Assembly: GCF_000763315.1 (NCBI RefSeq)
Contig: NZ_JPST01000036.1
Location: 2,277-26,276 of the forward strand
DNA: 24,000 nucleotides
Source: Thermoactinomyces daqus
GTDB lineage: Bacteria; Bacillota; Bacilli; Thermoactinomycetales; Thermoactinomycetaceae
Direction of reading: 5' to 3'
A program made the position numbers and the translations under genes. The notes beneath the pieces were generated by a model, which worked only from the letters and a program-made list of their open reading frames with translations, was not told the origin of the DNA and did no database searches. Below, in pieces: positions 4,344-24,000 of the stretch (the first letter of the stretch is position 1; each line of letters starts with the position of its first letter).

Positions 4344-4361
4344 AGCCCGGCATTCCTAGAT

Positions 4362-6111: not shown

Positions 6112-6118
6112 CCTTCAG

Positions 6119-6732: not shown

Positions 6733-6739
6733 CAGAAAA

Positions 6740-6772: not shown

Positions 6773-6775
6773 CAT

Positions 6776-8496: not shown

Positions 8497-8524
8497 CACA
8501 GTCACTCCTGTTCACATCCTCTTC

Positions 8525-8532
8525 ATTATACA
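8525..8532 (-). promoter_or_regulatory. Extended -10 element upstream of nudF
   Basis: The minus strand reads TGTATAAT. No good -35 was found. Confidence 0.3.
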
Positions 8533-8594
8533 TATCTTGCGGGCAGAATGCGTATCAGAAAGATAATCCTCAAAATGGAAGCGAGTGAAAAAAC

Positions 8595-8747
8595 ATGAAA
8601 AAAAGATGGGACGAACGTTCTGTCTGGATCAGCGGAAAAGCATGGCAAATCCGTCTTTATCTTCACCATCTGGCCCAAAGCAACCTCACCGTCAAACAAT
8701 ATATCCGAAAGCGATCAGCCGTTTTCCACTATAATAGAAACAGATAA
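8595..8747 (+). CDS. Possible 50-aa basic mini-protein
   Basis: The ORF ATG...TAA encodes MKKRWDERSVWISGKAWQIRLYLHHLAQSNLTVKQYIRKRSAVFHYNRNR. It is below the track cutoff, has a weak RBS and no recognised family. Confidence 0.25.
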   Translation: MKKRWDERSVWISGKAWQIRLYLHHLAQSNLTVKQYIRKRSAVFHYNRNR

Positions 8748-8819
8748 AATTGACGAGCAGGGCACAGTTCTGACCATGCGGCTGCAAAAATCAGACAGAG
8801 AACAGGGAGATGATCCTTC

Positions 8820-9685
8820 TTGCTGGCAACTCTTCAGGCACTTTTGCAGGGAATTGAGAAGGAAGCTGAAATCATCCGTTACCGCCCCGTATCCGGCGGA
8901 TGCATCAATCGGTCATTTTATGTACAAACCCGGACCCGTGCCTATTTTGTCAAGGTGAATGAACAAATGGATCACCGTTTTTTTCAAGCGGAAGCTCACG
9001 GATTGAAGTTGCTGAAAAAAACAAACACCATCGCCGTTCCTGACGTAATCGGCATCAGCCGGGAAGAAACGGACAATCGCCGTTTCTCGTGTTGGAATGG
9101 ATTGACGGGGAGGAGAGCTTCCGGACCGAGGAGGAGCTCGGGCGGGGGGTGGCCGGGCTGCACCGCCACAGGGGAACGCATTTCGGATTGGAAATGGACA
9201 ATTATCTTGGCATGTTGCCGCAAAAAAACGGCTGGTCAGATGATTGGCCCGCTTTTTACCGTGACCGTCGCCTCGGAGTTCAATTGAAACTCGGACAGAA
9301 AAAAGGCGCCATCTCCCCTCTGCGCTCTCAAAAACTGGAGAGATTGATGGCCCGTCTCGATTCCTTCTTACCGGCTGATGTCACCCCATCCCTGATCCAC
9401 GGAGATTTGTGGAGCGGCAACTGGATGGCTGGTCCCGGCGGACGTCCCTATTTGATCGACCCGGCTGTCCAGTATGCCCATTCCGAGATGGAGCTGGCAT
9501 TTACCGAGCTGTTCGGCGGTTTTTCGCAGCGTTTTTACCGCGCATACACGGAGATGAATCCGCTTGATCCCGGATATGAAGAACGGAAGCCTTTATATCA
9601 GCTTTACTATCTGCTCGTGCACTTAAATATCTTTGGGGAAACCTATGGCCCGGCCGTGGACCGAATTTTGGATTATTATCTTTAA
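8820..9685 (+). pseudogene. Fructosamine/ketosamine kinase family gene with a frameshift near 9075-9090
   Basis: Two overlapping ORFs (8820..9287 and 9089..9685) together make one kinase. The N-terminal part ends ...VIGISREETDNRRF. The second frame continues LVLEWIDGEE...LIHGDLWSGNW...DPAVQYAHSEMELA. Confidence 0.8.
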
Positions 9686-9857
9686 AAATCCCCAACGTGG
9701 TCTCAGGCCGGTTCGCGTTTCTTCACTCCCAATTTTGCTTAACTTTGATGCGGTTGTATATGACAAGACATGAATGATTTCTAACATTATAGTGAAAAAA
9801 TTTCTGACTCACAAGACAGGAAATATTATTCAAGCTTATCCAAGGAGAGGATCAAAC

Positions 9858-10700
9858 TTGCACACCTCCTTCCCGACTGACAGCAAAGAGCAATTGCTGA
9901 GGGAACTCAGCCTGATTCAAAAATGGGAAAAGGATCAAAAAGATTTATGGTTTTGGGAAAAACTCGGTCGTCTTCCCTTTGTGCTTTTGGACCGCATCAC
10001 ACCCAAAGCCGTTCAGGACTTCTTGGGAAAGGTGCTGGATGAGTTGGGAGGCTTTATCCAGACAGGCGGCAAATACTTAATTTCCGAAAAAGAGATCATC
10101 AACGATTTGGAAAAGCACGCAGGTCTCCCGTCCGGCGGGCTCACGCTCGATCAGGTGGCGTCACTTCCTCTCGGTACAATGAATAAAGCGGCAGAAAAAC
10201 TGAAGGAATCCCGGAGCGAATGGGCCATGATCCAAGGAGCCACAACCGGAATCGGCGGCATTTTCACACTGGCGATCGACATCCCGGCTCTGCTCGGTCT
10301 CTCCTTGAAAGTGCTTCAGGAGATGGCTTTGGTTTATGGCTATAATCCCCTGGAAAAAAGGGAACGGATCTTTATCGTCAAGTGTCTCCAGTTCGCTTCA
10401 GCCGATTATGTGGGGAAACAGGCGGTCATTTCGTATTTAACCCGTTTTCAGGAGGGGGAAATCCAGCGGGAATCGATTTCGGAATTACAGGGATGGCGTG
10501 AAGTGGTCGCCACCTATGGCGAAAATTTCGGATGGAAGAAGCTGTTCCAAATGGTTCCCGTCATCGGAATCATCTTTGGCGCGTTTCTGAACCGTTCCAC
10601 GGTAGAAGATGTTGCAGAGGCGGGAATGATGCTGTACCGCAAGCGTCGGATTCTGGAAAAACTTGAGAGTCTCAACGCTGAACGGCATCCGAACCGCTAG
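9858..10700 (+). CDS. EcsC-family protein
   Basis: WEKDQKD...GATTGIGGIFTLAIDIPALLGLSLKVLQEMALVYGYNP parallels B. subtilis EcsC (GGLSGTGGLLLLGADIPAM...LSYGVEV). The start is placed at TTG 9858 after AGGAGAGG. The track ORF begins upstream at 9774. Confidence 0.75.
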   Translation: MHTSFPTDSKEQLLRELSLIQKWEKDQKDLWFWEKLGRLPFVLLDRITPKAVQDFLGKVLDELGGFIQTGGKYLISEKEIINDLEKHAGLPSGGLTLDQVASLPLGTMNKAAEKLKESRSEWAMIQGATTGIGGIFTLAIDIPALLGLSLKVLQEMALVYGYNPLEKRERIFIVKCLQFASADYVGKQAVISYLTRFQEGEIQRESISELQGWREVVATYGENFGWKKLFQMVPVIGIIFGAFLNRSTVEDVAEAGMMLYRKRRILEKLESLNAERHPNR

Positions 10701-10704
10701 AGTA

Positions 10705-10754
10705 ATAAAAAACGGGCCGCGATCCGCTGTTGCGGCGGATGGCCCGTTTTTTGA
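10705..10754. terminator. Bidirectional rho-independent terminator
   Basis: AAAAAACGGGCCGCGATCCGC-tgtt-GCGGCGGATGGCCCGTTTTTT forms a long GC stem with an A-run on one side and a T-run on the other. Confidence 0.75.
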
Positions 10755-10771
10755 TTTTGCATTTGAAACCG

Positions 10772-10885
10772 TTATCTGAGCAATCCAAATATCCAGCGAT
10801 GCAGTGAAGGCCATTTAAATCTCCGCAACCAGAACCATACTTTCCTGAACCACCAAATCCGCCAAATCCACCGAATAATGGCCAT
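10772..10885 (-). CDS. Candidate 37-aa Trp/Arg-rich mini-protein
   Basis: GGGGGTGTATA-ATG opens an ORF encoding MAIIRWIWRIWWFRKVWFWLRRFKWPSLHRWIFGLLR. It ends ~20 nt before the bidirectional terminator. It is not in the track because it is under 60 aa. Confidence 0.3.
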   Translation of the reverse strand: MAIIRWIWRIWWFRKVWFWLRRFKWPSLHRWIFGLLR

Positions 10886-11049
10886 TATACACCCCCGGCA
10901 AACAGGATTCGCTTCATCCTATTCCCATATGTGAAAGGTGGAAGTGCATTCTCCCCATTTCAGCCGATTTTAAACGAATGTTGACTCAAAACAAGCTCCT
11001 CCCCATCCGACCAGTTCCGGATTTGCCCTGTACAGTCAGCAAACATAAA

Positions 11050-11058
11050 TGCTAGAAT
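11050..11058 (+). promoter_or_regulatory. Extended -10 element upstream of the hemolysin III gene
   Basis: TGCTAGAAT is preceded by TGTACA at about -35. This would give a ~120-nt leader. Confidence 0.3.
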
Positions 11059-11183
11059 AGCTAACAACAAGCTGGAAAGGTGTGGGAGGCTTTAAACAAA
11101 ATTGTCTTAAAATAACGAAATCACTCCTGCTGCTCCTTTTGTGAAAGTCCGCATATGATCCTGAACCCACCGGAGGTTATGAA

Positions 11184-11849
11184 ATGAAGCGATTGAAAAT
11201 GAAAGAACCTGTTAATACCTGGACCCATTTCGTCACATTCCTTGCAGCTATTGCCGGTTTGGTGTTTCTGATCAAACTCAGCTGGTTTCACCCCTCCGCA
11301 CTCGTAACGATGACCGTCTACGGTGTGAGTGTCATTTTATTATATGGCGCCAGTTCCCTCTATCATTGGGTATCCACGACTCCGAAAAAAGAGCTTTTCC
11401 TGCGAAAGATGGATCACTGTGCGATTTATCTCTTAATTGCCGGATCCTATACCCCGGTCTTTTATTATGGCTTGGATGGCAATTGGAAATGGATCATGCT
11501 GTCCAGTGTCTGGAGCCTGGCGCTGATCGGGATCGTTTTAAAGGTGTTTTTTATCCACGTCCCCCGCTATATTTCCACGGCATTCTATGTGACACTGGGC
11601 TGGATTGCCTTGATTCCCTTCGTACAACTGATTCATAATTTGCCTGCGGGAGCGATTACCCTGATGGTCGCAGGCGGCGTTTTTTACACGATCGGCGCCA
11701 TCATCTATGCGACCAAGTGTTTTAATTTTTTCCCGAACAAATTCGGTTTCCATGAGATTTTTCATCTGTTTATCATGGCGGGAACCGCTTTTCACTTTGC
11801 GATGATGGTTCTCTATATTCTGCCGATTGGCCTGGAAACCACGCATTGA
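11184..11849 (+). CDS. Hemolysin III / PAQR-family membrane protein
   Basis: The 221-aa product has seven TM segments and conserved His motifs (SSLYHW, HEIFHLFIMAGTAFHF). The start is GGAGG-N7-ATG. Confidence 0.88.
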   Translation: MKRLKMKEPVNTWTHFVTFLAAIAGLVFLIKLSWFHPSALVTMTVYGVSVILLYGASSLYHWVSTTPKKELFLRKMDHCAIYLLIAGSYTPVFYYGLDGNWKWIMLSSVWSLALIGIVLKVFFIHVPRYISTAFYVTLGWIALIPFVQLIHNLPAGAITLMVAGGVFYTIGAIIYATKCFNFFPNKFGFHEIFHLFIMAGTAFHFAMMVLYILPIGLETTH

Positions 11850-11920
11850 ACCTGTTTCACCGCGGATGGATGAATAGATGGCACGCTTTCAATGCACACT
11901 TAATCATGTCGTTTAAAACA

Positions 11921-11951
11921 GAGGAGCATCCTCACGATGAGGACGCTCCTC
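11921..11951. terminator. Hairpin between convergent genes
   Basis: GAGGAGCATCCTCA-cg-TGAGGACGCTCCTC forms the stem. The T-rich tail (TGTTTTAAA) is only on the minus-strand side. Confidence 0.5.
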
Positions 11952-11964
11952 CCAATTTGGCTCC

Positions 11965-13110
11965 TTATTTTGATGTCGTACTGTGTACGGGAACTTTTGC
12001 GCATTCACCGACCAGCTCGACAACCAGTTCTGCCGCTTTTTCCAATTCGGCGATCGGCATTCTCTCTTTGGTTGTATGGATATTTTCATACCCGATCCCC
12101 AGATTGACCGTTGGAATGCCATGGCCGGCAATCACGTTGGCATCGCTGCCTCCGCCGCTTGCAGCAATTTTGGGCGTGCGGCCCACTTTTTCCACGGCAG
12201 CTTTCGCTTTTTTCACGACAACGTCTTCTTCCGTAAATTTAAAACCGGGATACAGCACCTTGGTTTCCACTTCGGCACGTGCGCCAAATTGCTCCGCCGC
12301 CTCTTCAAACGCTTGTACCATATGTTTAACCTGTGCGCGCAGCTTCACTTCATTGCGGCTGCGTGCTTCGGCTACGATCTCCACCCGGTCCGGAACGACA
12401 TTGCTGGCGATGCCGCCCTGAAATTTTCCTATGTTGGCTGTGGTCTCGGCATCAATGCGCCCCAGACGCATTTTTGAGATCGCCCGGCTCGCCACCTGAA
12501 TGGCGCTGATCCCATTTTCGGGATCGACACCGGCATGAGCGGACTTTCCATGAATGGTGGCCAAAATTTTCACCTGCGATGGGGCTGAGGTGATAATCGT
12601 TCCAACCGGCCCGTCCGAATCAAAGGCAAAACCAAAATCGGCATCAACCAGCTTCATCTCCAAATGACGCGAGCCAATCAACCCCGATTCTTCTCCGGCC
12701 GTAATGATCAATTGAATCTGACCGTGAGGCAGTTTTTGTTCCTGCATCACACGCAAGCCTTCCAAAAGAGCGGCAAGTCCGGCTTTATCATCGCTTCCGA
12801 GAATGGTCGTGCCATCGGAAACGATGTAATCTCCCTGAATCGACGGTTTGATCCCCTTACCGGGAGCAACCGTATCCATATGGCATGTAAAATAGATCTT
12901 CGGCGCGCCTTGTATCGTCCTCGGCATCGTGGCAATTAAGTTTCCGGCTCCGTGTCCCGTCAGCTTGGCCGAGTCATCCTCGATCACCTGCAACCCCAGC
13001 GAGGTCAATTTTTCTTTGAGAAGATCACAGATCGCTCTCTCATCACCAGTTTCACTATCCGTTGTCACTAGCTCAATAAATTCATCGATTAGGCGTTGTT
13101 TGTTTATCAA
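11965..13110 (-). CDS. M20-family metallopeptidase (YqjE / peptidase T-like)
   Basis: The metal-ligand motifs CHMDTV, GSDDKAG and TAGEESG are present. The start is placed at TTG 13110 behind GGAGG. The track ORF extends to 13242 through sequence that does not look like protein. Confidence 0.85.
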   Translation of the reverse strand: MINKQRLIDEFIELVTTDSETGDERAICDLLKEKLTSLGLQVIEDDSAKLTGHGAGNLIATMPRTIQGAPKIYFTCHMDTVAPGKGIKPSIQGDYIVSDGTTILGSDDKAGLAALLEGLRVMQEQKLPHGQIQLIITAGEESGLIGSRHLEMKLVDADFGFAFDSDGPVGTIITSAPSQVKILATIHGKSAHAGVDPENGISAIQVASRAISKMRLGRIDAETTANIGKFQGGIASNVVPDRVEIVAEARSRNEVKLRAQVKHMVQAFEEAAEQFGARAEVETKVLYPGFKFTEEDVVVKKAKAAVEKVGRTPKIAASGGGSDANVIAGHGIPTVNLGIGYENIHTTKERMPIAELEKAAELVVELVGECAKVPVHSTTSK

Positions 13111-13234
13111 CGGGGTGCGCCTCCAATCGCTATTTAAATTTCTTCCTATTTTACCACGTTCAAGCCGTTTGTCATGGGAATAATCAAGGCGATAAACGGC
13201 CAAAATACCGGGTATCCGCCAAAAATACCTAATT

Positions 13235-13357
13235 TTAACCAAATAAACCCAACATTGCTGAGAAATTGACGAAAATCAGCACGCCCTTGGAAGAAATCGA
13301 ATGAAATTTTGTGTCCCTGGCGCGGATCAAATTTCCGAAATCTTCTTTTTTATACAT
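13235..13357 (-). CDS. Possible small membrane protein, 40 aa as written and ~70 aa if a 1-nt frameshift is corrected
   Basis: ATG 13357 opens MYKKEDFGNLIRARDTKFHSISSKGVLIFVNFSAMLGLFG*. The adjacent frame continues LKLGIFGGYPVFWPFIALIIPMTNGLNVVK* to 13146. Confidence 0.25.
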   Translation of the reverse strand: MYKKEDFGNLIRARDTKFHSISSKGVLIFVNFSAMLGLFG

Positions 13358-13603
13358 TTTCCCCGATCACCATCGTTTTATTCACCGATGACCCTCATCC
13401 GTGAATCTCCGCCGCAACCATCCTCCGTCCCGTCTGCCGGCGAAGTGCCTTGGCCAAACAGGGCTTGCCCCTGACGGCCAGTTTGGCCTTGACCGAATGG
13501 TATGCCCTGCATACAATCGCGCCACCCGGCCCATCGTTTTCCAACGTGAACGATCCACGGAACCCCGGATAAAGAAAATCTCCTTATTCACTTTATCCCT
13601 CCA

Positions 13604-15151
13604 TTATAACGGAATATTGCCGTGCTTTTTCGGCGGGCGTGTCTCCCGTTTGTTTCGCAGGATCTCCAAGGCGGTTTTTAATTTTTGTCTCGTTTCCCGC
13701 GGATCAATGACATCGTCAACCATTCCATGGGCTGCTGCGATATACGGGTTGGAAAACTTCTCTTTGTATTCTTCGATTCTGCGTTTTCTCGTTTCCTCCG
13801 GATGCTCGCTCTCCTCAATCTCCCTGCTGAAAATGATATTGGCCGCGCCTTCCGCCCCCATGACGGCAATTTCCGCACTGGGCCACGCGTAGACAAGATC
13901 TGCGCCGATCGCTTTGCTGTTGAGCGCCACATACGCCCCGCCGAATGCTTTGCGCAAAATGATCGTAATTTTCGGCACGGTCGCTTCCGAATAAGCGTAC
14001 AGGATTTTGGCGCCATGGCGGATGATCCCGTGATGTTCCTGGTTGACTCCCGGGAAAAAGCCGGTGACATCCACGAAAGTAATGATGGGAATGTTGAAAC
14101 TGTCACAGAAGCGAATAAAGCGGCTCAATTTATCCGATGCATCAATATCCAGGCTTCCTGCCATCACTTTCGGCTGATTGGCGGCAATTCCCACCGTCCG
14201 TCCGCCGATTCTGGCAAATCCGACGACGATATTGCGGGCAAAATCGGGATGAACTTCCATGAAATCCCCTTGATCGACAATCAGTTGGATCACTTGTTTT
14301 ACATCGTAGACCCGGCTGCCGTCAACGGGAACGGCCCCGGCCAGCTCTTCGATCCAGCCATCATCCTCTTTTTCATAGACTCGCGGCGGGTCTTCCATAT
14401 TGTTTTGCGGCAAATAACTCATTAAACGGCGGACTTGTTCCAGCACCTCCGGTTCGGTGGCAGCCGTGAAATGGACGTTGCCGCTCAGGCTGGCATGGAC
14501 TTCGGCTCCCCCCAGCTCTTCTGCGGAAATTTTCTCCTTGGTCACCGCTTCGATTACTTTTGGGCCGGTGATGAACATCTGGCTTGTATTTTGCACCATA
14601 AAGACAAAATCGGTAATCGCCGGAGAATAAACCGCTCCCCCGGCACACGGACCCATGATGACGGAAATCTGCGGAATCACCCCGGAGTAGATCGAATTCC
14701 GGTAAAAAATGTGGCCGTATCCGTCCAGAGAGACAACCCCCTCCTGAATGCGCGCTCCCCCCGAGTCATTGAGTCCGATGACCGGAGCTCCGTTTTTTGC
14801 GGCCAAATCCATCAGGCGGGCGATCTTTAAAGCATGCATCTCTCCCAGCGCACCGCCAAACACGGTAAAATCTTGGGCAAACACATACACATCCCGTCCG
14901 TGGATCTTTCCGTAACCGGTCACCACGCCTTCCCCCGGCGCTTCTGTTTGATCCATGCCAAAATGGGTGGCGCGATGCTCGATAAACGGATTGAGTTCCA
15001 CAAAAGAGCCTTCATCCACCAACAGGTCAATGCGTTCCCTTGCGGTCAGCTTTCCGCGTTTGTGCTGGGAGCGGATCCGCAATTCCCCGCCGCCCTGCTC
15101 AACTTTGGCCCGTTTTTGATTCAGTTCCTCAATCTTTTGATACATATCCAT
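13604..15151 (-). CDS. Acyl-CoA carboxyltransferase (propionyl-CoA carboxylase beta / methylmalonyl-CoA decarboxylase alpha type, YqjD-like)
   Basis: The ~515-aa product is colinear with carboxyltransferase-domain proteins (...GKLTARERIDLL...GGARIQEG...MGPCAGGAVYSPA...). The start is uncertain between 15151 and 15172. Confidence 0.9.
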   Translation of the reverse strand: MDMYQKIEELNQKRAKVEQGGGELRIRSQHKRGKLTARERIDLLVDEGSFVELNPFIEHRATHFGMDQTEAPGEGVVTGYGKIHGRDVYVFAQDFTVFGGALGEMHALKIARLMDLAAKNGAPVIGLNDSGGARIQEGVVSLDGYGHIFYRNSIYSGVIPQISVIMGPCAGGAVYSPAITDFVFMVQNTSQMFITGPKVIEAVTKEKISAEELGGAEVHASLSGNVHFTAATEPEVLEQVRRLMSYLPQNNMEDPPRVYEKEDDGWIEELAGAVPVDGSRVYDVKQVIQLIVDQGDFMEVHPDFARNIVVGFARIGGRTVGIAANQPKVMAGSLDIDASDKLSRFIRFCDSFNIPIITFVDVTGFFPGVNQEHHGIIRHGAKILYAYSEATVPKITIILRKAFGGAYVALNSKAIGADLVYAWPSAEIAVMGAEGAANIIFSREIEESEHPEETRKRRIEEYKEKFSNPYIAAAHGMVDDVIDPRETRQKLKTALEILRNKRETRPPKKHGNIPL

Positions 15152-15214
15152 CTCTCTGTCGCTCCCCATCAAGTTTTATCCTGGATATCCTTTCCACAAG
15201 ATTGGCAAAAGCGT

Positions 15215-15631
15215 TCAATCTTCAACCAAATGATTCGGTTCGCACAGTTCCACCAGAACGCCGCCCGCCTGTTTGGGATGTAAGAAGGCGATATTCATCT
15301 GATGCGCGCCGGGCTTGGGCCTTTCATTGATGAGGCGAACCCCTTTTTCGCGCAGGGCTTTGAGGCGCTCCTCCAATTCCTCCACCTCGAGGGCAATATG
15401 GTGAATTCCTTCTCCAAACCTGGCAATATATTTGGCGATGGCACTGTTTTCCGAAAGCGGTTCCAGCAATTCAATCCGGCTCTCCCCCACTTTAAAAAAG
15501 GCCACCCGTACCTGCTCGCTCTCGACGGTTTCGATCCCCTCCAGCGGCAATTCCAGCACATCTTGATACCAGGAACAGGAAGTGTCGAGATTTTTCACGG
15601 CGATGCCGATGTGGCTGATCTTTTTAGCCAT
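15215..15631 (-). CDS. mce: Methylmalonyl-CoA epimerase (VOC family)
   Basis: The 138-aa product reads ISHIGIAVKNLD...RIELLEP...GEGIHHIALEV. Its ATG lies inside the last codons of the upstream gene, an 8-nt overlap. Confidence 0.88.
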   Translation of the reverse strand: MAKKISHIGIAVKNLDTSCSWYQDVLELPLEGIETVESEQVRVAFFKVGESRIELLEPLSENSAIAKYIARFGEGIHHIALEVEELEERLKALREKGVRLINERPKPGAHQMNIAFLHPKQAGGVLVELCEPNHLVED

Positions 15632-16040
15632 TTTTCATCCCCTCCCTGTCCAAAACGGCTTGGCGAATAAAATCCGCTGTCTCCTTGGTCGTAGTTCCGG
15701 AGGTGAAAATCTCCGCGATTCCCTGCTCTTTTAAAAAAGGGATGTCGGCTTGCGGAATCACACCGCCGCCCACAACAATGATATCCTCCGCTCCCTGTTC
15801 CCTGAGCAGGCGCACCACCTCCGGAAACAGCTCATTATGGGCTCCGGACAGGCAGGATAATCCGATCACATCCACATCCTCCTGAATGGCTGTAGCCACA
15901 ATTTGTGCCGGAGACTGCCGCAAACCGGTATAAATCACTTCCATCCCTTCATCGCGCAGTGCTTGGGCAATGATTAACGCTCCGCGATCATGCCCGTCGA
16001 GCCCCGGCTTTGCCACCAAGACGCGAATTGGTCTGTTCAT
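15624..16040 (-). CDS. Methylmalonyl-CoA mutase, B12-binding small subunit
   Basis: MNRPIRVLVAKPGLDGHDRGA carries the DxHxxG cobalamin-binding motif. The start is the ATG at 16040 after GAGGGAGG. The track ORF carries an unlikely N-terminal extension. Confidence 0.9.
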   Translation of the reverse strand: MNRPIRVLVAKPGLDGHDRGALIIAQALRDEGMEVIYTGLRQSPAQIVATAIQEDVDVIGLSCLSGAHNELFPEVVRLLREQGAEDIIVVGGGVIPQADIPFLKEQGIAEIFTSGTTTKETADFIRQAVLDREGMKNG

Positions 16041-16054
16041 TTTGCTTCCTCCCT

Positions 16055-17698
16055 CTATACCGATTGATATTCGCCGAAAACACCACGGAGTGTATGGCAA
16101 ATTTCACCAACCGTCGCATACGCTTTTACCGCTTCCAGAATTCGTGGCATCAAGTTTTCCGATGTCTGTGCCGCCTGTTTCAGCCGGTCCAGACATGCTT
16201 TCACCTTCCCGGCATCCCGCTGTGAACGGACGCGTTTCAATTTTTCAATCTGCTGTGTGGCGATTTGCGGATCTACCCGCATCAGTCCGGGCTGTTCCTC
16301 CTGCTCCAGCCGGAAACGATTGACGCCGACCACCACTTCTTCACCGGATTCAATCTTCCGCTGGGTATCAAGGGCGGTACGCCGGATCTCCCCTTGCATG
16401 AACCCTTGTTCAATCGCTTGGACAGCCCCGCCCATCGCATCGATCTTTTCAATATATTCAAGTGCCGCCTGTTCAATCTGATCTGTGAGCGCCTCAATGA
16501 AATACGATCCTCCCAACGGATCAACCGTGTCGGCGACTCCGCTTTCGTAAGCGATGATCTGTTGCGTCCTCAGGGCGATACGGGCTGATTCCTCCGTGGG
16601 CAAAGCCAGCGCCTCATCGCGCGAGTTCGTATGCAGGCTTTGCGTTCCCCCCAGCACCGCGGCCAATGCCTGCAGCGTAACCCGGACAATATTGTTATCC
16701 GGCTGTTGCGCGGTGAGGGTGGAACCCCCGGTCTGCGTGTGAAAACGCAATTGTAACGAGCGCTCGTTCGAGGCATGGAAACGCTCCCGCATGATTTTCG
16801 CCCATAACCGCCTCGCTGCCCGGAATTTGGCGATCTCCTCAAAAAAGTGATTGTGCGCGTTGAAGAAAAAAGATAAACGCGGAGCGAATTGATCTACTTC
16901 GAGGCCGGCCTTCAGCGCCGCTTCGACATAGGCGATCCCGTTTGCCAGCGTAAACGCGACTTCCTGAACCGCGGTGGAACCAGCTTCCCGAATGTGATAA
17001 CCGCTGATGCTGATCGTATTCCATTTGGGCACTTCTTTCGCACAATACGCAAAAATATCCGTGATCAGCCGCATCGACGGTTTGGGTGGAAAAATATAAG
17101 TGCCGCGCGCCACATATTCCTTCAAAATATCGTTTTGAATCGTCCCGCGCAGCTGGTGTGGCTTCACTCCTTGTTTTTCTCCGACGGCAATGTACATTGC
17201 CAGCAAAATGGCGGCCGGCGCATTAATCGTCATCGATGTGCTCACTTTATCCAGGGGAATTCCGGCAAACAAGGCTTCCATGTCCTGCAAACTGTCAATC
17301 GCCACTCCGACCTTGCCCACTTCGCCCGTTGCCATCGGATCATCGGAGTCATAACCGATCTGCGTGGGTAAATCAAATGCGACGCTCAGCCCGGTTTGCC
17401 CCTGCTTCAACAGATAGTGAAAGCGCTGGTTTGTCTCCTCCGCAGTTCCGAAACCGGCATATTGACGCATGGTCCACAAGCGGCTTCGGTACATCGTCGG
17501 CCGAATTCCTCTGGTGTACGGAAATTCTCCCGGCAGTTCCTCATCTTCCCGTGCCCTGTCCTCTTTGGTATATAAACGCTTCACTTCGATGCCGGAAAGC
17601 GTAGTAAACGGGTTTTTGCGTTCAGGAGATTTGGCCAATAAAGTCTCCGTTTTCTCTTCCCACTTTTGGATCCGTTCGTTCCATCTCTCTTTCTCCAC
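16055..17698 (-). CDS. Methylmalonyl-CoA mutase, catalytic large subunit
   Basis: The 547-aa product contains [15 protein letters not shown] and [21 protein letters not shown]. The Tyr and Arg at the substrate-specificity positions favour methylmalonyl-CoA mutase over isobutyryl-CoA mutase. The GTG start follows GGAGAGGAG. Confidence 0.92.
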
Positions 17699-17723
17699 GC
17701 GGACAATCTCCTCTCCATCTGAA

Positions 17724-17752
17724 ATAAAACGCTTTCACTTCTTAATATAACA
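17724..17752 (-). promoter_or_regulatory. Extended -10 promoter plus a cre-like site upstream of the mutase operon
   Basis: The minus strand has TGTTATATT at 17744-17752. It is followed by TGAAAGCGTTTTAT (17724-17737), which matches about 12 of 14 positions of the CcpA cre consensus TGWAANCGNTNWCA. Confidence 0.35.
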
Positions 17753-17933
17753 AATATTTATCCTGTTTGGATTCTTAATTATTGGCCGATAGATAGACAT
17801 CATCAGAACAGTCGATTAAAATAAATGATTGAGGCCGTCTATTTTCATGTTTTTTTCACTGGAAGTTGATTTATACTGATTAGTGAAAACGCTGTAGCAA
17901 AGCGCGGATGAAAGAGGAAAGCGGGTGTGAAAC

Positions 17934-18110
17934 GTGCAATACTTTATGGTTCCATTACTGGTCTTGATCAGCATTTTCGCGATTCGCGGCACCTATTACA
18001 ACAAAAAGACCGGCAACAAGCCGGGTTTCATCATCGGCGGAATCTTCACATTGGGTCTCGTCGGTGTCACTGTACTCGCTTTGTATGATTTCTTTGTCGG
18101 TCTGCAATAA
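17934..18110 (+). CDS. Possible 58-aa two-TM mini-protein
   Basis: The ORF GTG...TAA encodes VQYFMVPLLVLISIFAIRGTYYNKKTGNKPGFIIGGIFTLGLVGVTVLALYDFFVGLQ. A strong terminator follows immediately. The start codon is uncertain (GTG 17934 or ATG 17946). Confidence 0.45.
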   Translation: MQYFMVPLLVLISIFAIRGTYYNKKTGNKPGFIIGGIFTLGLVGVTVLALYDFFVGLQ

Positions 18111-18114
18111 GAGT

Positions 18115-18153
18115 GAGGAGACTCCACTAGGCACGGAGTCTCCTCATTTTTTT
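18115..18153 (+). terminator. Rho-independent terminator
   Basis: GAGGAGACTCC, a 9-nt loop and GGAGTCTCCTC are followed by ATTTTTTT. Confidence 0.8.
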
Positions 18154-18208
18154 AACGCATCGGATCATAGCGAAGGGATCGCTGTGCGTTCCCGGCTTCA
18201 CCAGTTTG

Positions 18209-19033
18209 TCACAGCGATTTAAACTGTTCCACCTGAGACCGGATTGCCTTTTCCGTAGGCAGTCTCTCTATGCTGGATGCTCCGAAGAATCCGGCCACCC
18301 CTTTGGTGGATGCGAGGATTTTTTGCACATCGGCCGGTTCGGCAATCGGTCCGCCATGGCACAAGACGATGATGTCCGGATTCACCTCTTTTGCCGCATC
18401 ATGTATGGCTTGAATCCGTTCAGCTGATTCTTCCAGCGTGAGCGCTGTCTCCGCGCCGATTGATCCTTTGGTGGTCAGACCCATATGGGCAACCAGCACA
18501 TCCGCTCCTGCTTCTGCCATCGCAATCGCTTCCCGTTGGTTAAATACATAGGGACAGGTAAGCAGATCCAATTCATGGGCGATTCGGATCATTTCGACTT
18601 CCAGGTTGAACCCCATTCCCGTTTCTTCGAGATTTTGGCGAAACACCCCGTCGATCAGGCCGACAGTGGGGAAATTTTGTACTCCGTCAAAGCCCATCTC
18701 TTTCAATTGTTTGAGAAACACGGGCATCTGACGGAAGGGATCTGTTCCGCACACTCCGGCCAAGACAGGAGTGTTTTTGACAATCGGCAATACCTCCGCT
18801 GCCATTTCCACCACAATCCCGTTCGCGTCTCCATAAGGCATCAGCCCGGCAAGTGAACCGCGGCCGGCCATGCGGTACCGACCCGAATTATAAATAATGA
18901 TGAGATCTGCGCCACCCTGTTCGGCGAATTTGGCGGAAATGCCTGTCCCCGCACCGCAGCCGATAATCACCGATCCGTCTTCGATCGTCTGTTTCAAGCG
19001 CTTCAGTGCATCATCACGAGTGATAAAAGGCAT
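18209..19033 (-). CDS. Phosphoenolpyruvate-hydrolase-like TIM-barrel protein (PF09370-type)
   Basis: The 274-aa product reads ...[49 protein letters not shown]..., typical of this family. It normally pairs with a UPF0261 gene. Confidence 0.8.
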
Positions 19034-19047
19034 AAAAAAACCCCCTC

Positions 19048-19410
19048 TTATTTTTCTTCATTTTGCAGAAATTCAAGCAGTTTATCCGTCACGGCCCGGG
19101 CGAATAAGGGATCGTTAATATTGCAGTCAAGTTCGATAATCGGGATTTCGCTCTTTGTATTCTTCTTGATCGCATCAAACAGAGCCTGATCAGCTTCCGG
19201 CCACCAAAAGTCTCTATCCGGGGCATCCAATTCGGATATGCCCTGAAGCGGAAGGAAAATGGCGACAGGCCCTTTGGACTGGTTTGCCTTCTCGGCCAGA
19301 ATCCGGCCCAGTTCTTCATTCTCTTCCGGAGTGGTTCTCATCAGCGTGACATTCTCATTCCAGGCATAGAGTAACCGGTTTTTATACTTGTCGGGTACAC
19401 CTGAAGTCAC
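19048..19410 (-). pseudogene. C-terminal fragment (~120 aa) of a UPF0261 / Tm-1-like ATP-binding protein
   Basis: VPDKYKNRLLYAWNENVTLMRTTPEENEELGRILAEKANQSKGPVAIFLPLQGISELD... corresponds to the C-terminal part of proteins that are normally ~400 aa. The reading frame runs into AT-rich foreign sequence and meets TGA TGA at 19429-19434. Confidence 0.75.
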
Positions 19411-19491
19411 ATTTGCTAAAAACTTTTTTCATCATGTATGTAACGTCAGGTTATTCGATGTCACCAAAAAACACTCTGGGAGGAATTCAAA

Positions 19492-20484
19492 ATGAAAAAA
19501 CATATCAAAGGCCAACAAGTTGAACGGAAAGGTTTGCACCATGTTTATGGAGAACCTGCTGACAATTTCAATAATCGCTGGCAACCAATGGCCTACACCA
19601 CAAAAGAAATGAATGAATGGGCAATCGAAGCAAAACCTTTTGTTGAATGGGCACAAAATGAAACTGATCCACAAAAGCAAAAAGAAATTCTTGAAATGTC
19701 AGTTGGTTTGAACAAGTTGATGAACATCTATTTTGGTTATCGTGGTGAAGGCGGGAAAAATGACGTTCAACGGTTGACAGAAAAACTTTGGTATCCACTT
19801 CCCGATGAATCAATTATCACAAACAATGCTTGGAAGCTGCTGAAGGAAGCAATTCTTGAATACGACATTTCAATTGGTGATTTCAAACCGTTCTATGACA
19901 AAAAGTTGAAAAAACGTGCAACATCGGATTTGAACAAAGTAAAGGAAAATCGTGCAGAAAAGCAGGTCCCAGTCAGTCAATTGGAATCATACAAATCTAA
20001 GAATTCAAATGATGATGCTGATCAGTCGGAATTTGTTTATGGAATCGTCGAAGATAACTACTCACTTGAAGTTGATGACGAACTTCAATATTACGTGAAG
20101 AGATTGTTGAAGAATATTCCGGGAAGAAAAAATGCCAAAGAAAAACAAAAATTCATCCTTGATTTTATCATAAAAGATATGGTGAAGTCACAAACCGAAA
20201 GGAAAGCATTGATTGAACGGAAATTCCCAACAAAAGAAGTTGCTGAAAATTTAACAGAAAAATTTGGTGGAACTTTTGATGCAAATAAACGGTTTGTCAT
20301 TCGTTTCAGAGAGCAAGCAATGGAAGAACTTGAATTGCTTGGGCACAAATTGAACACCACTTACACCAACGACAAAAAAGTGCTGAAAGAACGGAATATG
20401 AAAAAATTCTTCAACAAAGAAACACACGAGAAAAACAAGCACTATTCAGAATACCTGGAAAAATTCAAGAAAGGTCTTGCTTAA
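19492..20484 (+). CDS. Hypothetical 330-aa protein with weak sigma-70-like region 2 / region 4 features
   Basis: GGGAGG-N8-ATG start. AWKLLKEAILEYDISIGDFKPFYDKKLKKRATSDL resembles sigma region 2. ERKALIERKFPTKEVAENLTEKFGGTFDANKRFVIRFREQAMEEL resembles region 4. This assignment is only a hypothesis. Confidence 0.7.
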   Translation: MKKHIKGQQVERKGLHHVYGEPADNFNNRWQPMAYTTKEMNEWAIEAKPFVEWAQNETDPQKQKEILEMSVGLNKLMNIYFGYRGEGGKNDVQRLTEKLWYPLPDESIITNNAWKLLKEAILEYDISIGDFKPFYDKKLKKRATSDLNKVKENRAEKQVPVSQLESYKSKNSNDDADQSEFVYGIVEDNYSLEVDDELQYYVKRLLKNIPGRKNAKEKQKFILDFIIKDMVKSQTERKALIERKFPTKEVAENLTEKFGGTFDANKRFVIRFREQAMEELELLGHKLNTTYTNDKKVLKERNMKKFFNKETHEKNKHYSEYLEKFKKGLA

Positions 20485-20520
20485 AATAGATAACTTGTAG
20501 AATTTGCAGATTTCAAACAA

Positions 20521-20546
20521 GGTGGGGAAATTCAACCTTCCCCACC
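20521..20546 (+). terminator. Hairpin after the 330-aa gene
   Basis: GGTGGGGAA, an 8-nt loop and TTCCCCACC form the stem. An A-run rather than a T-run follows on the + strand, so terminator function is uncertain. Confidence 0.35.
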
Positions 20547-20574
20547 ACAAAAAAAATTTCTCCTTATGTCACCT

Positions 20575-20603
20575 TTGAGTAAAACGTTCCCCATATATAT
20601 AGT
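20575..20603 (+). promoter_or_regulatory. Candidate SigA-type promoter
   Basis: TTGAGT-N17-TATAGT. The predicted transcript start would fall in or after the GAGGAGG RBS of the next gene, which argues against it or implies a very short leader. Confidence 0.3.
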
Positions 20604-20618
20604 GAGGAGGTAAAAACA

Positions 20619-20879
20619 ATGAAAAACAAAACAAAAGAACAACTGAAAATTTGGTCCGCTGGAAATGGTCGGTTCTTCGCTTACACTGAAAACTTGAAGC
20701 TGAAAAACAAACTGGAAAGCATTGATGGAATTAGATTGATTGGATCATATCATACGCAGAAAGGTAAATTGTTTGGCCTTCAATTTGTGATTGACAATAT
20801 TGAACTTAAAGAACATTTTGTCAAAATTGCTAAAGATGGAAACGTTGCAGAAACTAAAAAGCAACTTTCACTTTTCTAA
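20619..20879 (+). CDS. Hypothetical 86-aa protein
   Basis: The ORF has a GAGGAGG-N8-ATG start. No family was recognised. Confidence 0.65.
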   Translation: MKNKTKEQLKIWSAGNGRFFAYTENLKLKNKLESIDGIRLIGSYHTQKGKLFGLQFVIDNIELKEHFVKIAKDGNVAETKKQLSLF

Positions 20880-20894
20880 AAGGAGGAATTGAAG

Positions 20895-21101
20895 ATGAAA
20901 AAATCCCAGACAAAAACAATCTGTTGTGTCATTTGTGGTGCAGAAGAAGCAGTCAATGAGAAAACTTCCACTGATGGAATTGCACCTGATTGGTTCATCT
21001 TTAATGAAACGATTAATGAATTTGTTTGTTCTTGGGAATGTGATGAAATTGCAGAAGGAATGTTCAATTGTGGTTCTGGATATTTCATTGAGGAAATTTG
21101 A
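20895..21101 (+). CDS. Cys-rich 68-aa protein, a putative zinc-binding protein
   Basis: AAAGGAGG-N7-ATG start. Cysteines are arranged CCVIC...CSWEC...C. Confidence 0.6.
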   Translation: MKKSQTKTICCVICGAEEAVNEKTSTDGIAPDWFIFNETINEFVCSWECDEIAEGMFNCGSGYFIEEI

Positions 21102-21114
21102 GGAGGTGTAGAAA

Positions 21115-21546
21115 TTGCCTAAAGAAAAATTGCCATCTGCAAAAAATTGGCGGGAACGGAAAATTGAAACCTGGAATGCGACAACTTTTCATGAATATTT
21201 GAAACATAAACATCAGGAGAGATTTTCCCTTTCCTATCGGGCAGGCAACATTAGAGGCCAGAATTCACAGATAAAACGGTTGTATGAAGAAATCGGAAAA
21301 GAAGCAACTAAGGAATTCATTGACCTGTGCTTCCAAACCTACAAACCAAGGCAAGGTTACAATAGTTTAAATTTCTTTTACATGATTAGAAGCATGAATT
21401 TCCTGATCCCAAAAGCAGTTGACAACATTGAACGGAAAAGAAAAATTGCAGAAATGAAACAACGTCAACAACAACAAGAAATTCAACAACCTGAAGTTAA
21501 TAAAGGTGAAGTTGAAAACATTCTTAAATATTGGGGGATTGAGTAA
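21115..21546 (+). CDS. Hypothetical 143-aa protein (basic N-terminus, Gln-rich C-terminus)
   Basis: AGGAGG-N8-TTG start. Its TAA stop overlaps the ATG of the next gene (TAATG). No family was recognised. Confidence 0.65.
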   Translation: MPKEKLPSAKNWRERKIETWNATTFHEYLKHKHQERFSLSYRAGNIRGQNSQIKRLYEEIGKEATKEFIDLCFQTYKPRQGYNSLNFFYMIRSMNFLIPKAVDNIERKRKIAEMKQRQQQQEIQQPEVNKGEVENILKYWGIE

Positions 21547-22331
21547 TGAGAAAAACTAATGAAAAGAATTGCATTCTTCGGGGAGTTTGTGTAAAAGCAG
21601 GTTCTGAATCGCATTGTAATAAACTTTGTCCACTTTACAATTCTATGCACGGTCATAAAGGAATAGGTGGTCGTGTAGCAATGGCAAACATTCCAAAGGA
21701 TTATCAGAAAATGACCATTTCTCACAATCCAGTTCGTGAAGTACAAAAACAAGCATATTTCCTGATTGACCGTTGGGCAAAGAAGTTTTTCCCTCTGATC
21801 TTTGAAGAAAATGCGGAAAGAATTAAACCACTTTACCTTTATTCAAAAGAAGTCGGAACCGGAAAAACAGCAACTGCTGCTTCTATTGCAAATTCATTTT
21901 TGGTTTACACCTTCACAGAAGCATTGAAACGTGGACAGCAGCCATTAGAACGTCCAGTATATTTCTTGGATTTTAACCAATGGCAAAGGGAATTTGCTGC
22001 TTTCAATAATCCAAAGATTCCCCGTGATATGGGAGAAAAAATGGCACGTAAGTTTTACGAAATCCGGGATATTGCAAAGGACGTTCTTTTACTTGTGGTT
22101 GATGATATTGGAATTGAGGACCCAAGCAATGCTTTCCATGGAATTGCCCATGATTTGATCAACCACAGACTTGTGAATTGGTTGCCCACAATATTTACGT
22201 CAAACGTTGAGATGGAAGATTTGCTTTTACGTTATGATAAACGGCTATTTGATCGAATTCGAGACCACAATTCCCAAATTGAATTCATTGGAACTTCCCA
22301 CCGTGGAATGAGACAGGATTTTGACGTTTAA
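21546..22331 (+). CDS. DnaC/DnaI-like AAA+ helicase loader
   Basis: Walker A is SKEVGTGKTATA and Walker B is LLLVVDDIG. The N-terminal Cys/His cluster CILRGVCVKAGSESHCNKLCPLYNSMHGH resembles the DnaI zinc module. Confidence 0.8.
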   Translation: MRKTNEKNCILRGVCVKAGSESHCNKLCPLYNSMHGHKGIGGRVAMANIPKDYQKMTISHNPVREVQKQAYFLIDRWAKKFFPLIFEENAERIKPLYLYSKEVGTGKTATAASIANSFLVYTFTEALKRGQQPLERPVYFLDFNQWQREFAAFNNPKIPRDMGEKMARKFYEIRDIAKDVLLLVVDDIGIEDPSNAFHGIAHDLINHRLVNWLPTIFTSNVEMEDLLLRYDKRLFDRIRDHNSQIEFIGTSHRGMRQDFDV

Positions 22332-22344
22332 GGGGGAAACCTGA

Positions 22345-23190
22345 ATGGATTATAAATCGAAGTTCAAAATTGGTGATTTGGTTGTTGTAAAAAAGATTCC
22401 TAATGAAGTTTGGAAAATTGATACCATTCATTATGGAGTGGTCAATTTTTACTACATCATCAATACAATGTCGAATCTTCCTTATTTCTGTGCAGAATTT
22501 GAACTTGAACATGCAGAAATGGGTTCAGATCGAAATTCTAAATTTAAGGTTGGGGATTTGGTTGTTGATAAAACTATGCCTGATGCTGTTTTTAAAGTTG
22601 AAGAAATTAATTATGGAAAAATGAATGGGTACACAGTGAGTGATTTACAAAACGGAACCTTATTCTATTTTTTGGAAATTGAACTTGAACATGCAGAACC
22701 GTCAAAACCAGAACTAAAATTGATTGGATCAAAATTCAAACCTGGTGACATCGTGATGGTTGATGGATATATTGGACAATTTAAAGTAATTGAATGTACT
22801 GGTTATGAACCAATGGTTGAAGATGTTATTTATAAATTGATCAATATTCACACTGGTGAAGAAGTTTTTGGTGCTGAATGGGATATGAAATTTTTTGGTA
22901 AGAAAAATGAAATAATCAATATAAAATTGAATGTTGAAACTGGTTATATTGAACAATTGCCAAAGAAACAACCACAACCAAAGAAAACACCAAAACATAG
23001 AACACTTGAAGCTGGAATTATTTCCAAACTTGAATACAATAGATTCCTTGTAGAAAAAGGAAAACAAATGATTGATGATTATCTTGATTTATTTAGTAAT
23101 TTTGGTGACGAAAAATACCTAAGGAGAATCAAACGGATCAACAATTTTATCAATAAAATTCCTGTTCGTGCATTTCAAATTGAAGATTGA
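22345..23190 (+). CDS. Protein with three tandem ~60-aa repeats and a helical C-terminal tail
   Basis: Repeats begin SKFKIGDLVVVKK, SKFKVGDLVVDKT and SKFKPGDIVMVDG. Repeats 1 and 2 both end E(F/I)ELEHAE. GGGGGAAA-N5-ATG start. Confidence 0.75.
   Translation: MDYKSKFKIGDLVVVKKIPNEVWKIDTIHYGVVNFYYIINTMSNLPYFCAEFELEHAEMGSDRNSKFKVGDLVVDKTMPDAVFKVEEINYGKMNGYTVSDLQNGTLFYFLEIELEHAEPSKPELKLIGSKFKPGDIVMVDGYIGQFKVIECTGYEPMVEDVIYKLINIHTGEEVFGAEWDMKFFGKKNEIINIKLNVETGYIEQLPKKQPQPKKTPKHRTLEAGIISKLEYNRFLVEKGKQMIDDYLDLFSNFGDEKYLRRIKRINNFINKIPVRAFQIED
22357..22902 (+). repeat. Three tandem ~180-190-nt coding repeats
   Basis: Repeat units start at 22357, 22537 and 22729. The shared exact strings are gatttggttgttg and gaacttgaacatgcagaa. 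Repeat 3 is more diverged. Confidence 0.7.
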
Positions 23191-23206
23191 ATGGGAGGAA
23201 TTTTGA

Positions 23207-24000
23207 ATGACCATTGCAAGCATGAAATTCTTTTCAAAAATGCTCGATCTGAAATTTACTGATGCATTTGTTCAATACGGAATTACTGAAGAAAAATTGA
23301 CCACAAAAACAGAACGGGAAATTTTCAACTTCATTGACGAATACATCACCAGAAATGGTGAAACTCCCACGCCTGAAGAAATTGCAGTTAAGTTTGAAGG
23401 GTTTGTTTATACTCCAACCAATTCTTCCTTTGATGTTTTGGCTGAAGAAATTAATCAAAACCACGCAAAGAATGAATTGATCCGATTGATTCAAGGAAGG
23501 ATTAACGCTGAAGATGAATTTGAGAAGAAAGAAAACCTGAATGATCTTTTGAACAAAAAGTCAGGGTTTGAATTGATTGATCTGTTGCAGAAGCAATTGG
23601 AACAAATTAAAACGGAGACTTTGACACAAAAGAAAGTTGGCCTTTCTTTAACTGAAGATTATGATTGGTTCTTTGAAGAGTACGAAAACCGGAAACAAGG
23701 GAAATCGTTTAAAGTTTGGGAATCGAAATTCCCTAAACTGAATCGTGTTTTAGGTGGTGGTTATGTTTCTGGCAACCTTTACACCTTTTATGGTCGATCT
23801 GGTCGTGGTAAGTCAATCATCATGTTGGAAGAAGCAATAAACGCAGCAGTTCACGGTGCAAAAGTTTTGTATTGGGGATTGGAAATGATTGCTTTTGAAA
23901 TGTTTTGTAGGGCTTATGCATCTTTATCCTCCCGTCAGAAATTGTTTAGGGGAAGTTTGACAGACGAACAATTGCAGCAGATTTTTGGTAACAGTGATGA
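23207..24000 (+). CDS. DnaB-type replicative helicase (5' part, open at the window end)
   Basis: GGGAGG-N8-ATG start. The frame is open for all 264 remaining codons. LNRVLGGGYVSGNLYTFYGRSGRGKSIIMLEEA is the DnaB-family Walker A region. It is absent from the ORF track because no stop lies in the window. Confidence 0.85.
   Translation, partial: MTIASMKFFSKMLDLKFTDAFVQYGITEEKLTTKTEREIFNFIDEYITRNGETPTPEEIAVKFEGFVYTPTNSSFDVLAEEINQNHAKNELIRLIQGRINAEDEFEKKENLNDLLNKKSGFELIDLLQKQLEQIKTETLTQKKVGLSLTEDYDWFFEEYENRKQGKSFKVWESKFPKLNRVLGGGYVSGNLYTFYGRSGRGKSIIMLEEAINAAVHGAKVLYWGLEMIAFEMFCRAYASLSSRQKLFRGSLTDEQLQQIFGNSD

Follow-up and report, generated by a model that had tools for sequence, protein, structure and literature searches.

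Positions 19411–24000 of the 24,000-nucleotide stretch of Thermoactinomyces daqus DNA analysed here (the whole stretch is referred to as the window) hold a run of rightward genes resembling the replication module of a phage, which begins directly beside a host gene. A preliminary description of this stretch noted that the integrase/repressor block of a temperate phage is missing at this end, and the list of open reading frames (ORFs) indeed contains no integrase, recombinase or repressor ORF on either strand of 19411–24000. What kind of element ends here, and where are its lysogeny genes? Our analysis leads us to conclude, with high confidence, that an intact temperate siphovirus of ~59,834 bp is integrated in the T. 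daqus chromosome and that 19391–24000 forms its attL end. The lysogeny module only seems to be missing, a plain consequence of serine-integrase geometry: no lysogeny genes stand at the window end because cutting the circular phage genome at attP places the large serine recombinase (LSR) and the lysogeny regulator at the opposite, right-hand end.

The attachment sites and the split host gene

The GC content steps from 0.496 (1–19390) to 0.353 (19411–24000) at ~19400. Alignment of the window with contigs that carry the phage in its attP configuration (described below) revealed that the 101 nt 5' of the gene 1 ATG are identical and that the sequences diverge at 19390/19391. The identity ends at this point, and therefore 19391–19410 is common to phage and host; the boundary is a shared 20-nt block rather than a point at 19411. 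The same attL junction was found in independent sequencing runs (L006 and L008). The features at the junction are as follows.

19048–19410, minus strand: 3' remnant of the UPF0261 gene (Pfam UPF0261_C, 2.1e-37)
19379–19387, plus strand: TTTTTATAC, candidate zinc-ribbon-domain motif at positions 19–11 of the attB left half-site
19391–19410, no strand: attL common core TCGGGTACACCTGAAGTCAC, defined by identity between the window and the attP contigs
19413–19444, plus strand: conserved P' arm block TTGCTA-N18-TATGTA(AC)
19425–19451: extra half-site-like copy TTTTTCATCATGTATGTAACGTCAGGT, overlapping the conserved P' arm block
19492–20484, plus strand: gene 1, 330 aa

The recombinase with which the phage integrates is a 512-aa LSR encoded at the far end of the prophage. 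It contains the three domains of this family, namely Resolvase (PF00239), Recombinase (PF07508) and Zn_ribbon_recom (PF13408), it matches the integrase family phrog_95 at 3.4e-120, and it has a YARVS motif near its N-terminus. Among the named proteins found, none exceeds 51% identity to the LSR, and a scan of a genome-contig collection with the LSR gave distant LSRs only. Four independent contigs from four sequencing runs in Logan (L164–L167) join the LSR gene directly to gene 1 through a spacer of 415–416 nt, two of them (L166 and L167) with 0–1 mismatches to the prophage arms, and a further contig (L007) has the same junction. The spacer is composed, in order, of the LSR stop codon, a strong terminator (AAGAACCTAGA-AAG-TCTAGGTTCTT followed by T9), a ~315-nt AT-rich P arm, the core TCGGGTACACCTGAAGTCAC, and 81 nt leading to gene 1. 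An imperfect dyad, AATCATGTAAC-N16-GTCACATTTGC, with the flanks TTTTTA and TAAAAA, is centred at L164 4074/4075, ~320 nt past the LSR stop, so that a ~50-bp attP lies beside the integrase gene. The crossover dinucleotide is predicted to be the AC at 19397–19398, which corresponds to the centre of the attP dyad.

In the LI/A118 integrase model, the motif bound by the zinc-ribbon domain is shifted 5 bp inward in attB relative to attP (PMC3783163). In our attP, TTTTTAATC occupies positions 24–16 of the left half-site (L164 4051–4059), and the near-identical TTTTTATAC in the host arm occupies positions 19–11, that is to say, 5 bp nearer the centre. The shift was found in the left half of attB, which is the half examined here. 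With its attP core 81 nt before gene 1, the phage shows the normal adjacency of integrase and attP in serine-integrase phages. The preliminary description had offered an attP directly upstream of the early genes as one possibility and had called that position unusual; the contigs joining the LSR to gene 1 bear out the location, but the position itself is ordinary for this class of phages.

On the host side, the 19048–19410 ORF aligns only with positions 106–217 of the 218-position UPF0261_C profile, and its closest homologues are UPF0261 family proteins. It appears to be the last ~117–120 codons of a host UPF0261 (Tm-1-like ATP-binding) gene severed by the prophage, and its called GTG start is a truncation artefact. 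The core at 19391–19410 encodes the UPF0261 residues V-T-S-G-V-P-D. A PEP_hydrolase-like gene (18209–19033, minus strand), the usual partner of UPF0261, lies 14 nt downstream of the remnant and was probably once co-transcribed with it. The UPF0261_C match is cut at 19410 and the partner gene stands alongside; therefore, the host gene is interrupted by the element, and ~285 UPF0261 codons must lie past the other end of the element. In the lysogen, the PEP_hydrolase-like gene is 59.8 kb from the 5' part of its operon, and therefore both genes are probably silenced; lysogeny thus probably inactivates this gene pair. A search with the UPF0261 fragment matched short C-terminal fragments only, at most 75% identical, and no full-length close homologue from which attB could be reconstructed was among its results.

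Two metagenome contigs of the Joint Genome Institute (JGI), from two samples and carrying a 75%-identical UPF0261 homologue, both start ~17 nt upstream of the equivalent of the att core (L009 1–20 and L010 1–20). This shared break could mark an integration hot-spot in another host. Its assignment to the related phage L174 (described below), which comes from the same project, was dropped because the attP core of L174 mismatches both contigs.

Integration is explained as follows. In the circular phage genome, the order is the helix-turn-helix (HTH)-TPR regulator (leftward), a 103-aa ORF and the LSR gene (both rightward), the terminator, attP, gene 1, and the replication module. Recombination of the core with the same 20 nt in the UPF0261 gene of the host opened the circle between the LSR gene and gene 1. 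Gene 1 and the replication genes thereby ended at attL, against the 3' remnant of UPF0261, and the LSR gene and the lysogeny regulator ended at attR, ~59 kb to the right of the junction. The attR site itself is predicted ~59.8 kb to the right.

The complete prophage

The preliminary description proposed extending the sequence rightwards; the extension revealed recombinase, structural and lysis genes within a single 59.8-kb prophage. An integrase immediately to the right of the window was looked for and is absent, and the LSR gene stands at the far end, ~59 kb away. The attL and attP junctions together give a phage genome size of 59,833–59,834 bp. The prophage is present in IMG/VR as UViG_2617271285_000009 (59,418 bp), the first base of which is the A of the gene 1 ATG. 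The IMG/VR pieces could be joined without contradiction and show full identity with the window and with NCBI locus L001 in all overlaps, and the window proteins and the LSR are encoded on one NCBI contig, JACEIP010000010.1 (116 kb, GCA_013867735.1). The prophage is organised as follows.

Block 1, plus strand: gene 1, two small genes, the phrog_6154 gene, DnaC-like loader, 281-aa protein, DnaB-like helicase
Block 1 continued, beyond the window, plus strand: 66-aa gene, Toprim primase, four small genes
Block 2, convergent, minus strand: amidase, BhlA-type holin, Tal, Dit, 1015-aa tape measure, major tail
Block 2 continued, minus strand: head-tail connectors, major capsid, scaffold, minor head, portal, TerL
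Block 3, long, minus strand: C5 methylase, GIY-YIG, DnaQ-like exonuclease, ThyX, dUTPase, 760-aa ribonucleotide reductase
Block 3 continued, minus strand: RuvC-like nuclease, PD-(D/E)XK protein, PolA gene split by an HNH ORF
After block 3, leftward (minus strand): HTH-TPR regulator, 450 aa
Right end, plus strand: 103-aa ORF, then the 512-aa LSR

The phage is complete: it possesses the packaging, head, tail, lysis, replication and integration modules of an intact tailed phage, together with contigs in the attP configuration. It is probably active, to judge from these contigs. The alternative that the element is a defective remnant or a satellite, which lost or never had an integrase, a repressor and structural genes, was raised in the preliminary description and draws on the lack of an integrase or repressor within 4.6 kb of the junction and on the many products without a family match. 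We consider it very improbable, because all modules are present in 59.8 kb with no obviously broken genes, the LSR is intact, and the attP configuration recurs in several runs with 0–1 mismatches to the prophage arms. A satellite resembling the phage-inducible chromosomal islands would be ~10–20 kb and without structural or lysis genes, whereas both of these modules are full here. Equally, since the assembly is a draft and other runs contain the phage in non-integrated form, one might suspect that the junction is an assembly chimera of a host contig and a free phage genome. Such a chimera is scarcely credible given that the attL junction is repeated in independent runs, that the LSR gene and the junction lie on the same 116-kb contig, and that a shared 20-nt core with a correctly shifted host-arm motif is a signature of site-specific recombination and not of misassembly. 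Two other phage types, Mu-like transposable and tyrosine-integrase, were also considered and rejected, since the LSR is the only recombinase and a defined attP junction exists.

Several points weigh against an intact, active prophage with the attachment sites described above. Neither attR nor the 5' part of the UPF0261 gene was retrieved, so that the attR sequence, the position at which the core ends on the right and the reciprocal junction have been deduced. Exact-pattern scans of JGI metagenomes for the B arm plus core and for the P arm plus core gave zero matches. The profile libraries yielded no candidate for a recombination directionality factor, although these factors are too diverse for such libraries. 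Activity is deduced from sequence and not from experimental induction, and the attP-type contigs could stem from concatemers or virions instead of from excision in this lysogen. With these points considered, we retain the assignment as an intact temperate siphovirus.

The regulator at the far end (L159 2063–3415, plus strand of that contig; 450 aa) has an XRE-type N-terminus (phrog_3) followed by TPR repeats. Only 24 nt downstream of it lies a 45-aa ORF (L159 3440–3577, plus strand) encoding MKNALIVMFVLLLSVFIVNA followed by EDGQTILTQDHYAFESAQMGEPWCC, the second part of which runs EDGQ...EPWCC. The N-terminus of this ORF resembles a signal peptide, and the pair is identical in the attP contigs. 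In window-equivalent coordinates, the pair lies outside the window at about 75.3–76.9 kb on the minus strand, divergent from the integrase operon. This layout of a receptor gene followed by a propeptide gene is that of RRNPP/arbitrium-like signalling, and the pair may be regarded as an RRNPP/arbitrium-like receptor and propeptide, the likeness being one of gene layout and not of demonstrated AimR/AimP homology. An RRNPP-like peptide-signalling pair would thus adjoin the integrase. At the same place, phage L174 has an ECF sigma/anti-sigma pair.

Two other genes outside the window, both on its minus strand, have unusual structures. The PolA-type polymerase gene (L159 5502–8942) is divided into ORFs of 595 and 376 aa with a 142-aa HNH endonuclease ORF between them, which looks like a mobile intron or homing-endonuclease insertion. 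The DnaQ-like 3'–5' exonuclease (L079 80–1063; 327 aa) has an N-terminal extension of ~120 aa, which resembles a helix-turn-helix (sigma region 4-like) domain; the alignment with viral relatives covers residues 118–322 only.

The early genes and their transcription

The 19411–24000 region contains seven ORFs, all on the plus strand, and is 96% coding. The intergenic gaps of genes 1–7 are, in order, 134, 15, 13, –1, 13 and 16 nt, each ORF is preceded by GGAGG or GGGGG at a distance of 6–10 nt (strong ribosome-binding sites), and the gene 4 stop overlaps the gene 5 start in a TAATG at 21544–21548. The tightly packed rightward array seen in the preliminary description is thus borne out by the ORF coordinates. 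The features downstream of gene 1 are as follows.

20521–20546, plus strand: GC-rich stem-loop between genes 1 and 2
20575–20603, plus strand: promoter-like TTGAGT-17-TATAGT, just upstream of gene 2
20619–20879, plus strand: gene 2, 86 aa, no recognisable family
20895–21101, plus strand: gene 3, 68 aa, Cys-rich (CxxC ... CxxxC), no recognisable family
21115–21546, plus strand: gene 4, 143 aa, TTG start, phrog_6154
21546–22331, plus strand: gene 5, 261 aa, DnaC/DnaI-like AAA+ loader
22345–23190, plus strand: gene 6, 281 aa, repeat protein
23207–24000, plus strand: gene 7, DnaB-like helicase, 264 of 482 codons in the window, ending at window-equivalent 24655

Gene 1 is rare: a search of 5.8 billion clustered proteins gave a single homologue, and an exhaustive HMMER search revealed a family of 13 among 1.84 billion representatives. 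On balance, we favour the view that its product is a very divergent sigma-70-family factor of a tiny phage family. This view draws on three independent comparisons, all of which point to sigma factors alone: (i) the family profile matches the sigma-H structure PDB 3mzy over region 2 (E 0.002); (ii) in a Foldseek comparison of the AlphaFold (AF2) model with the PDB, sigma-70-family chains account for 18 of the 20 top matches; and (iii) in BFVD, annotated phage sigma factors stand at the top, with Foldseek probabilities of 0.85–0.97. The model was built from a 12-sequence alignment (pLDDT 67.6) because the model from two sequences was unusable (pLDDT 41.7). Furthermore, the conserved motifs of gene 1 are placed where sigma regions 2 and 4 would fall.

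Each of these scores is individually weak, however, with Foldseek E-values of at least 0.02 and TM-scores of about 0.2–0.3. Against a sigma factor it also counts that gene 1 has no Pfam match at threshold (one family member reaches Sigma70_r2 at E 0.15) and that an hhalign comparison of the family with a single ECF sigma was not significant. Because of these low scores, and because gene 1 adjoins attP and heads a replication module that otherwise has no clear initiator, we see a real, if smaller, chance that the product is another early protein sharing helical bundles, such as an origin-binding initiator, an anti-repressor or a recombination directionality factor. The agreement of the three comparisons and the fit of the conserved motifs to regions 2 and 4 argue for the sigma-like assignment instead. 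The best fold matches are phage sigma factors annotated in the Bacillus phages phiAGATE and Shanette, and the gp28 and gp34 proteins of SPO1 are phage-encoded sigma-70-family factors. Like phage sigma factors, gene 1 has a family profile that aligns with region 2, and it starts an early transcription unit; unlike them, it has no Pfam region at threshold, is longer (330 aa) with insertions, and belongs to a family of just 13 representatives. This family may constitute a new branch among the phage sigma factors.

The gene 1 ATG is 81 nt from 19411, close to the ~60–80 nt first estimated, and no sigma-70 consensus promoter passed our scan in 19411–19491, which agrees with the original impression that a convincing promoter is absent. 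The P' arm block TTGCTA-N18-TATGTA(AC) at 19413–19444 falls below the scan threshold. Nevertheless, the related phage L171 shares 26 of the 32 nt of this block, despite a diverged att core and gene 1. The block may serve as the promoter/operator of gene 1 or as an accessory site for binding of the integrase; it lies within the P' arm and therefore remains with gene 1 in the lysogen. The overlapping copy TTTTTCATCATGTATGTAACGTCAGGT belongs to the direct-repeat family D1/D4. The P arm, which lies outside the window, contains two exact TTACGTAAC palindrome-containing copies (L164 3825–3833 and 3955–3963, 130 nt apart) and several ATGTAAC-type half-site-like copies; these copies may be operators or accessory integrase sites.

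The preliminary description suggested that the first genes might be expressed only after circularisation, and integration could then act as a topological switch, with gene 1 silent in the lysogen and its real control sites in the P arm. After integration, the P-arm palindromes and half-site-like repeats would be 59.8 kb away at attR, the remaining 81-nt P' arm has no consensus promoter, and neither the LSR operon nor the host would supply read-through, since the strong terminator follows the LSR gene and the host genes left of attL point away. We nonetheless judge such a switch unlikely, because the best-conserved upstream element is part of the P' arm and is not separated from gene 1 by integration, and because the P arm likewise has no plus-strand consensus promoter in the attP context. 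From the half-site copy that overlaps the promoter-like block (19413–19451) and from the relocation of the P arm to attR, a related coupling may be proposed, in which gene 1 would represent a new, extremely small sigma-like family and its expression would be tied to the integrated or excised state through integrase occupancy or loss of P-arm sites; we put this forward as a speculative proposal with little chance of being correct.

Between genes 1 and 2, the stem-loop at 20521–20546 has a 9-bp stem inside a –18.8 kcal/mol fold. On the plus strand, an A-run precedes the TTT downstream of it, so that it differs from a classical terminator; it is possibly a terminator or attenuator. The promoter-like site at 20575–20603 agrees with the consensus at 9 of 12 positions, in AT-rich DNA where such matches occur at the chance rate (15 found versus 13.5 expected), and a promoter function would be suggested by its position only. 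The stem-loop and the promoter-like site lie between genes 1 and 2, and genes 2–7 may therefore be a separate unit.

Among the window proteins, Pfam recognised the helicase alone, and weakly, with genes 1–6 giving no match. The two products recognised in the preliminary description were confirmed with PHROGs, which identified gene 5 as a DnaC-like loader (phrog_50, 2.9e-37) and gene 7 as a DnaB-like helicase (phrog_19, 6.7e-33). The gene 5 product has a Walker A (GTGKT) and a Walker B (VVDDIG) motif and matches the DnaI/DnaC loaders 2w58, 2qgz, 6qel and 4m4w in the PDB at 1e-5 to 6e-4. It is thus a loader of the DnaC/DnaI type, with the DnaB-type helicase gene two positions downstream. The full-length gene 7 product (482 aa) matches Pfam DnaB_C (PF03796) with 36.8 bits against a cut-off of 27, and the fragment in the window alone scores 26 bits, just below that cut-off. 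A Toprim primase gene follows gene 7 beyond the window.

Gene 4 matches phrog_6154 at 4.3e-31 and, weakly, phrog_7498 (DnaD-like helicase loader) at 0.0071, and its product is probably a replication organiser or initiator accessory. The gene 6 product consists of three ~60-aa KFKxGDxV repeats and a C-terminal helical part. An internal 180-nt duplication (22354–22698, 73–96% identical at the DNA level) gives rise to tandem ~60-aa "KFKxGDxV ... ELEHAE" modules, followed by a third, more divergent copy. Judging from its position, gene 6 may encode a replisome or origin accessory; PDB sequence searches with genes 4 and 6 returned noise only. The duplication in gene 6 is the sole strong repeat in 19391–24000, where no origin-like iterons or tandem repeats were found. 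The earlier characterisation of these products as mostly orphans holds for genes 2 and 3, but not for gene 1, which is sigma-like, gene 4, which belongs to phrog_6154, or gene 6, which is conserved in position. The primosome set (DnaD-like protein, loader, repeat protein and DnaB) would load the phage helicase at the phage origin, and the phage's own PolA-type polymerase would then replicate the genome.

Relatives and comparison with known systems

The closest parallels to the LSR–attP–gene 1 arrangement come from two related phages. In the first (L171/L172, Logan run SRR29078146), the LSR is 70% identical and gene 1 about 45–50% identical, and an 86-aa gene follows the gene 1 homologue, as gene 2 does here. 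An attP-like dyad, AATTATGTAACTCATGGTGTACCAGAACTTCCATAATT, is located at L171 130–170. The reverse complement of its centre encodes G-S-S-G-T-P, which resembles V-T-S-G-V-P of UPF0261, and this lineage may target the same gene in different hosts. The second is a 60.7-kb JGI contig (L174), in which the order is LSR, attP-like dyad, gene 1 homologue, DnaC-like loader, gene 6 homologue, DnaB, and primase. Its gene 1 homologue (26% identity, E 2e-20) is the first large gene past the LSR and attP, and its gene 6 homologue (33% identical) likewise lies between loader and helicase. The same 11-N16-11 dyad is located downstream of the LSR in both phages. L174 repeats the order of LSR, attP and gene 1; therefore, the arrangement is a property of the lineage.

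Among deposited phages, no DNA-level match covers more than 5% of 19411–24000, so that a close match to a described phage was looked for in vain; the phage has no close relative among deposited genomes. No publication on a T. daqus prophage was found in the literature, and this is the first temperate phage of T. daqus, a thermophile of Daqu liquor starters, described in detail. The best matches of the gene 5 loader (43–44% identity) are to the Halcyonevirus phages of Paenibacillus larvae (Tripp, Halcyone, Heath, Scottie and Unity), which have the same order of loader, DnaB-like helicase and DnaG-like primase, with a PolA-type polymerase later. By contrast, there is no DNA-level similarity, the 281-aa repeat protein sits between loader and helicase here, the genes for the polymerase and for nucleotide metabolism are on the opposite strand, and the upstream genes bear no relation to one another. 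In its major capsid protein, the phage shares 53% identity with Sporosarcina phage Lietuvens and 70–80% with two IMG/VR prophage contigs; the comparison with these relatives covered structural genes alone, and they offer no match to the replication end in the window.

The phage adds a new serine integrase whose attP is defined and whose attB, located in the conserved gene UPF0261, is half-defined; such pairs of integrase and site serve as genome-engineering tools. Known LSR phages enter other genes: the integrase of Listeria A118/U153/LI targets comK, and SprA of Bacillus SPbeta targets spsM. To our knowledge, the UPF0261 (Tm-1-like) gene has not been described as an LSR target. The excision of SPbeta and of the comK phages is developmentally regulated; by contrast, no sign of such regulation is seen in the present prophage, which is known from its sequence alone. 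The element shares several features with the LSR phages (Listeria A118/U153/LI, SPbeta, phiC31, Bxb1 and TP901-1): as in these, (i) the LSR has three domains and attP lies directly downstream of the integrase gene; (ii) an imperfect dyad of ~50 bp surrounds the central dinucleotide, with the distal T-rich motif placed 5 bp inward in attB; and (iii) a host gene is split and the integrase gene is found at one end of the prophage only.

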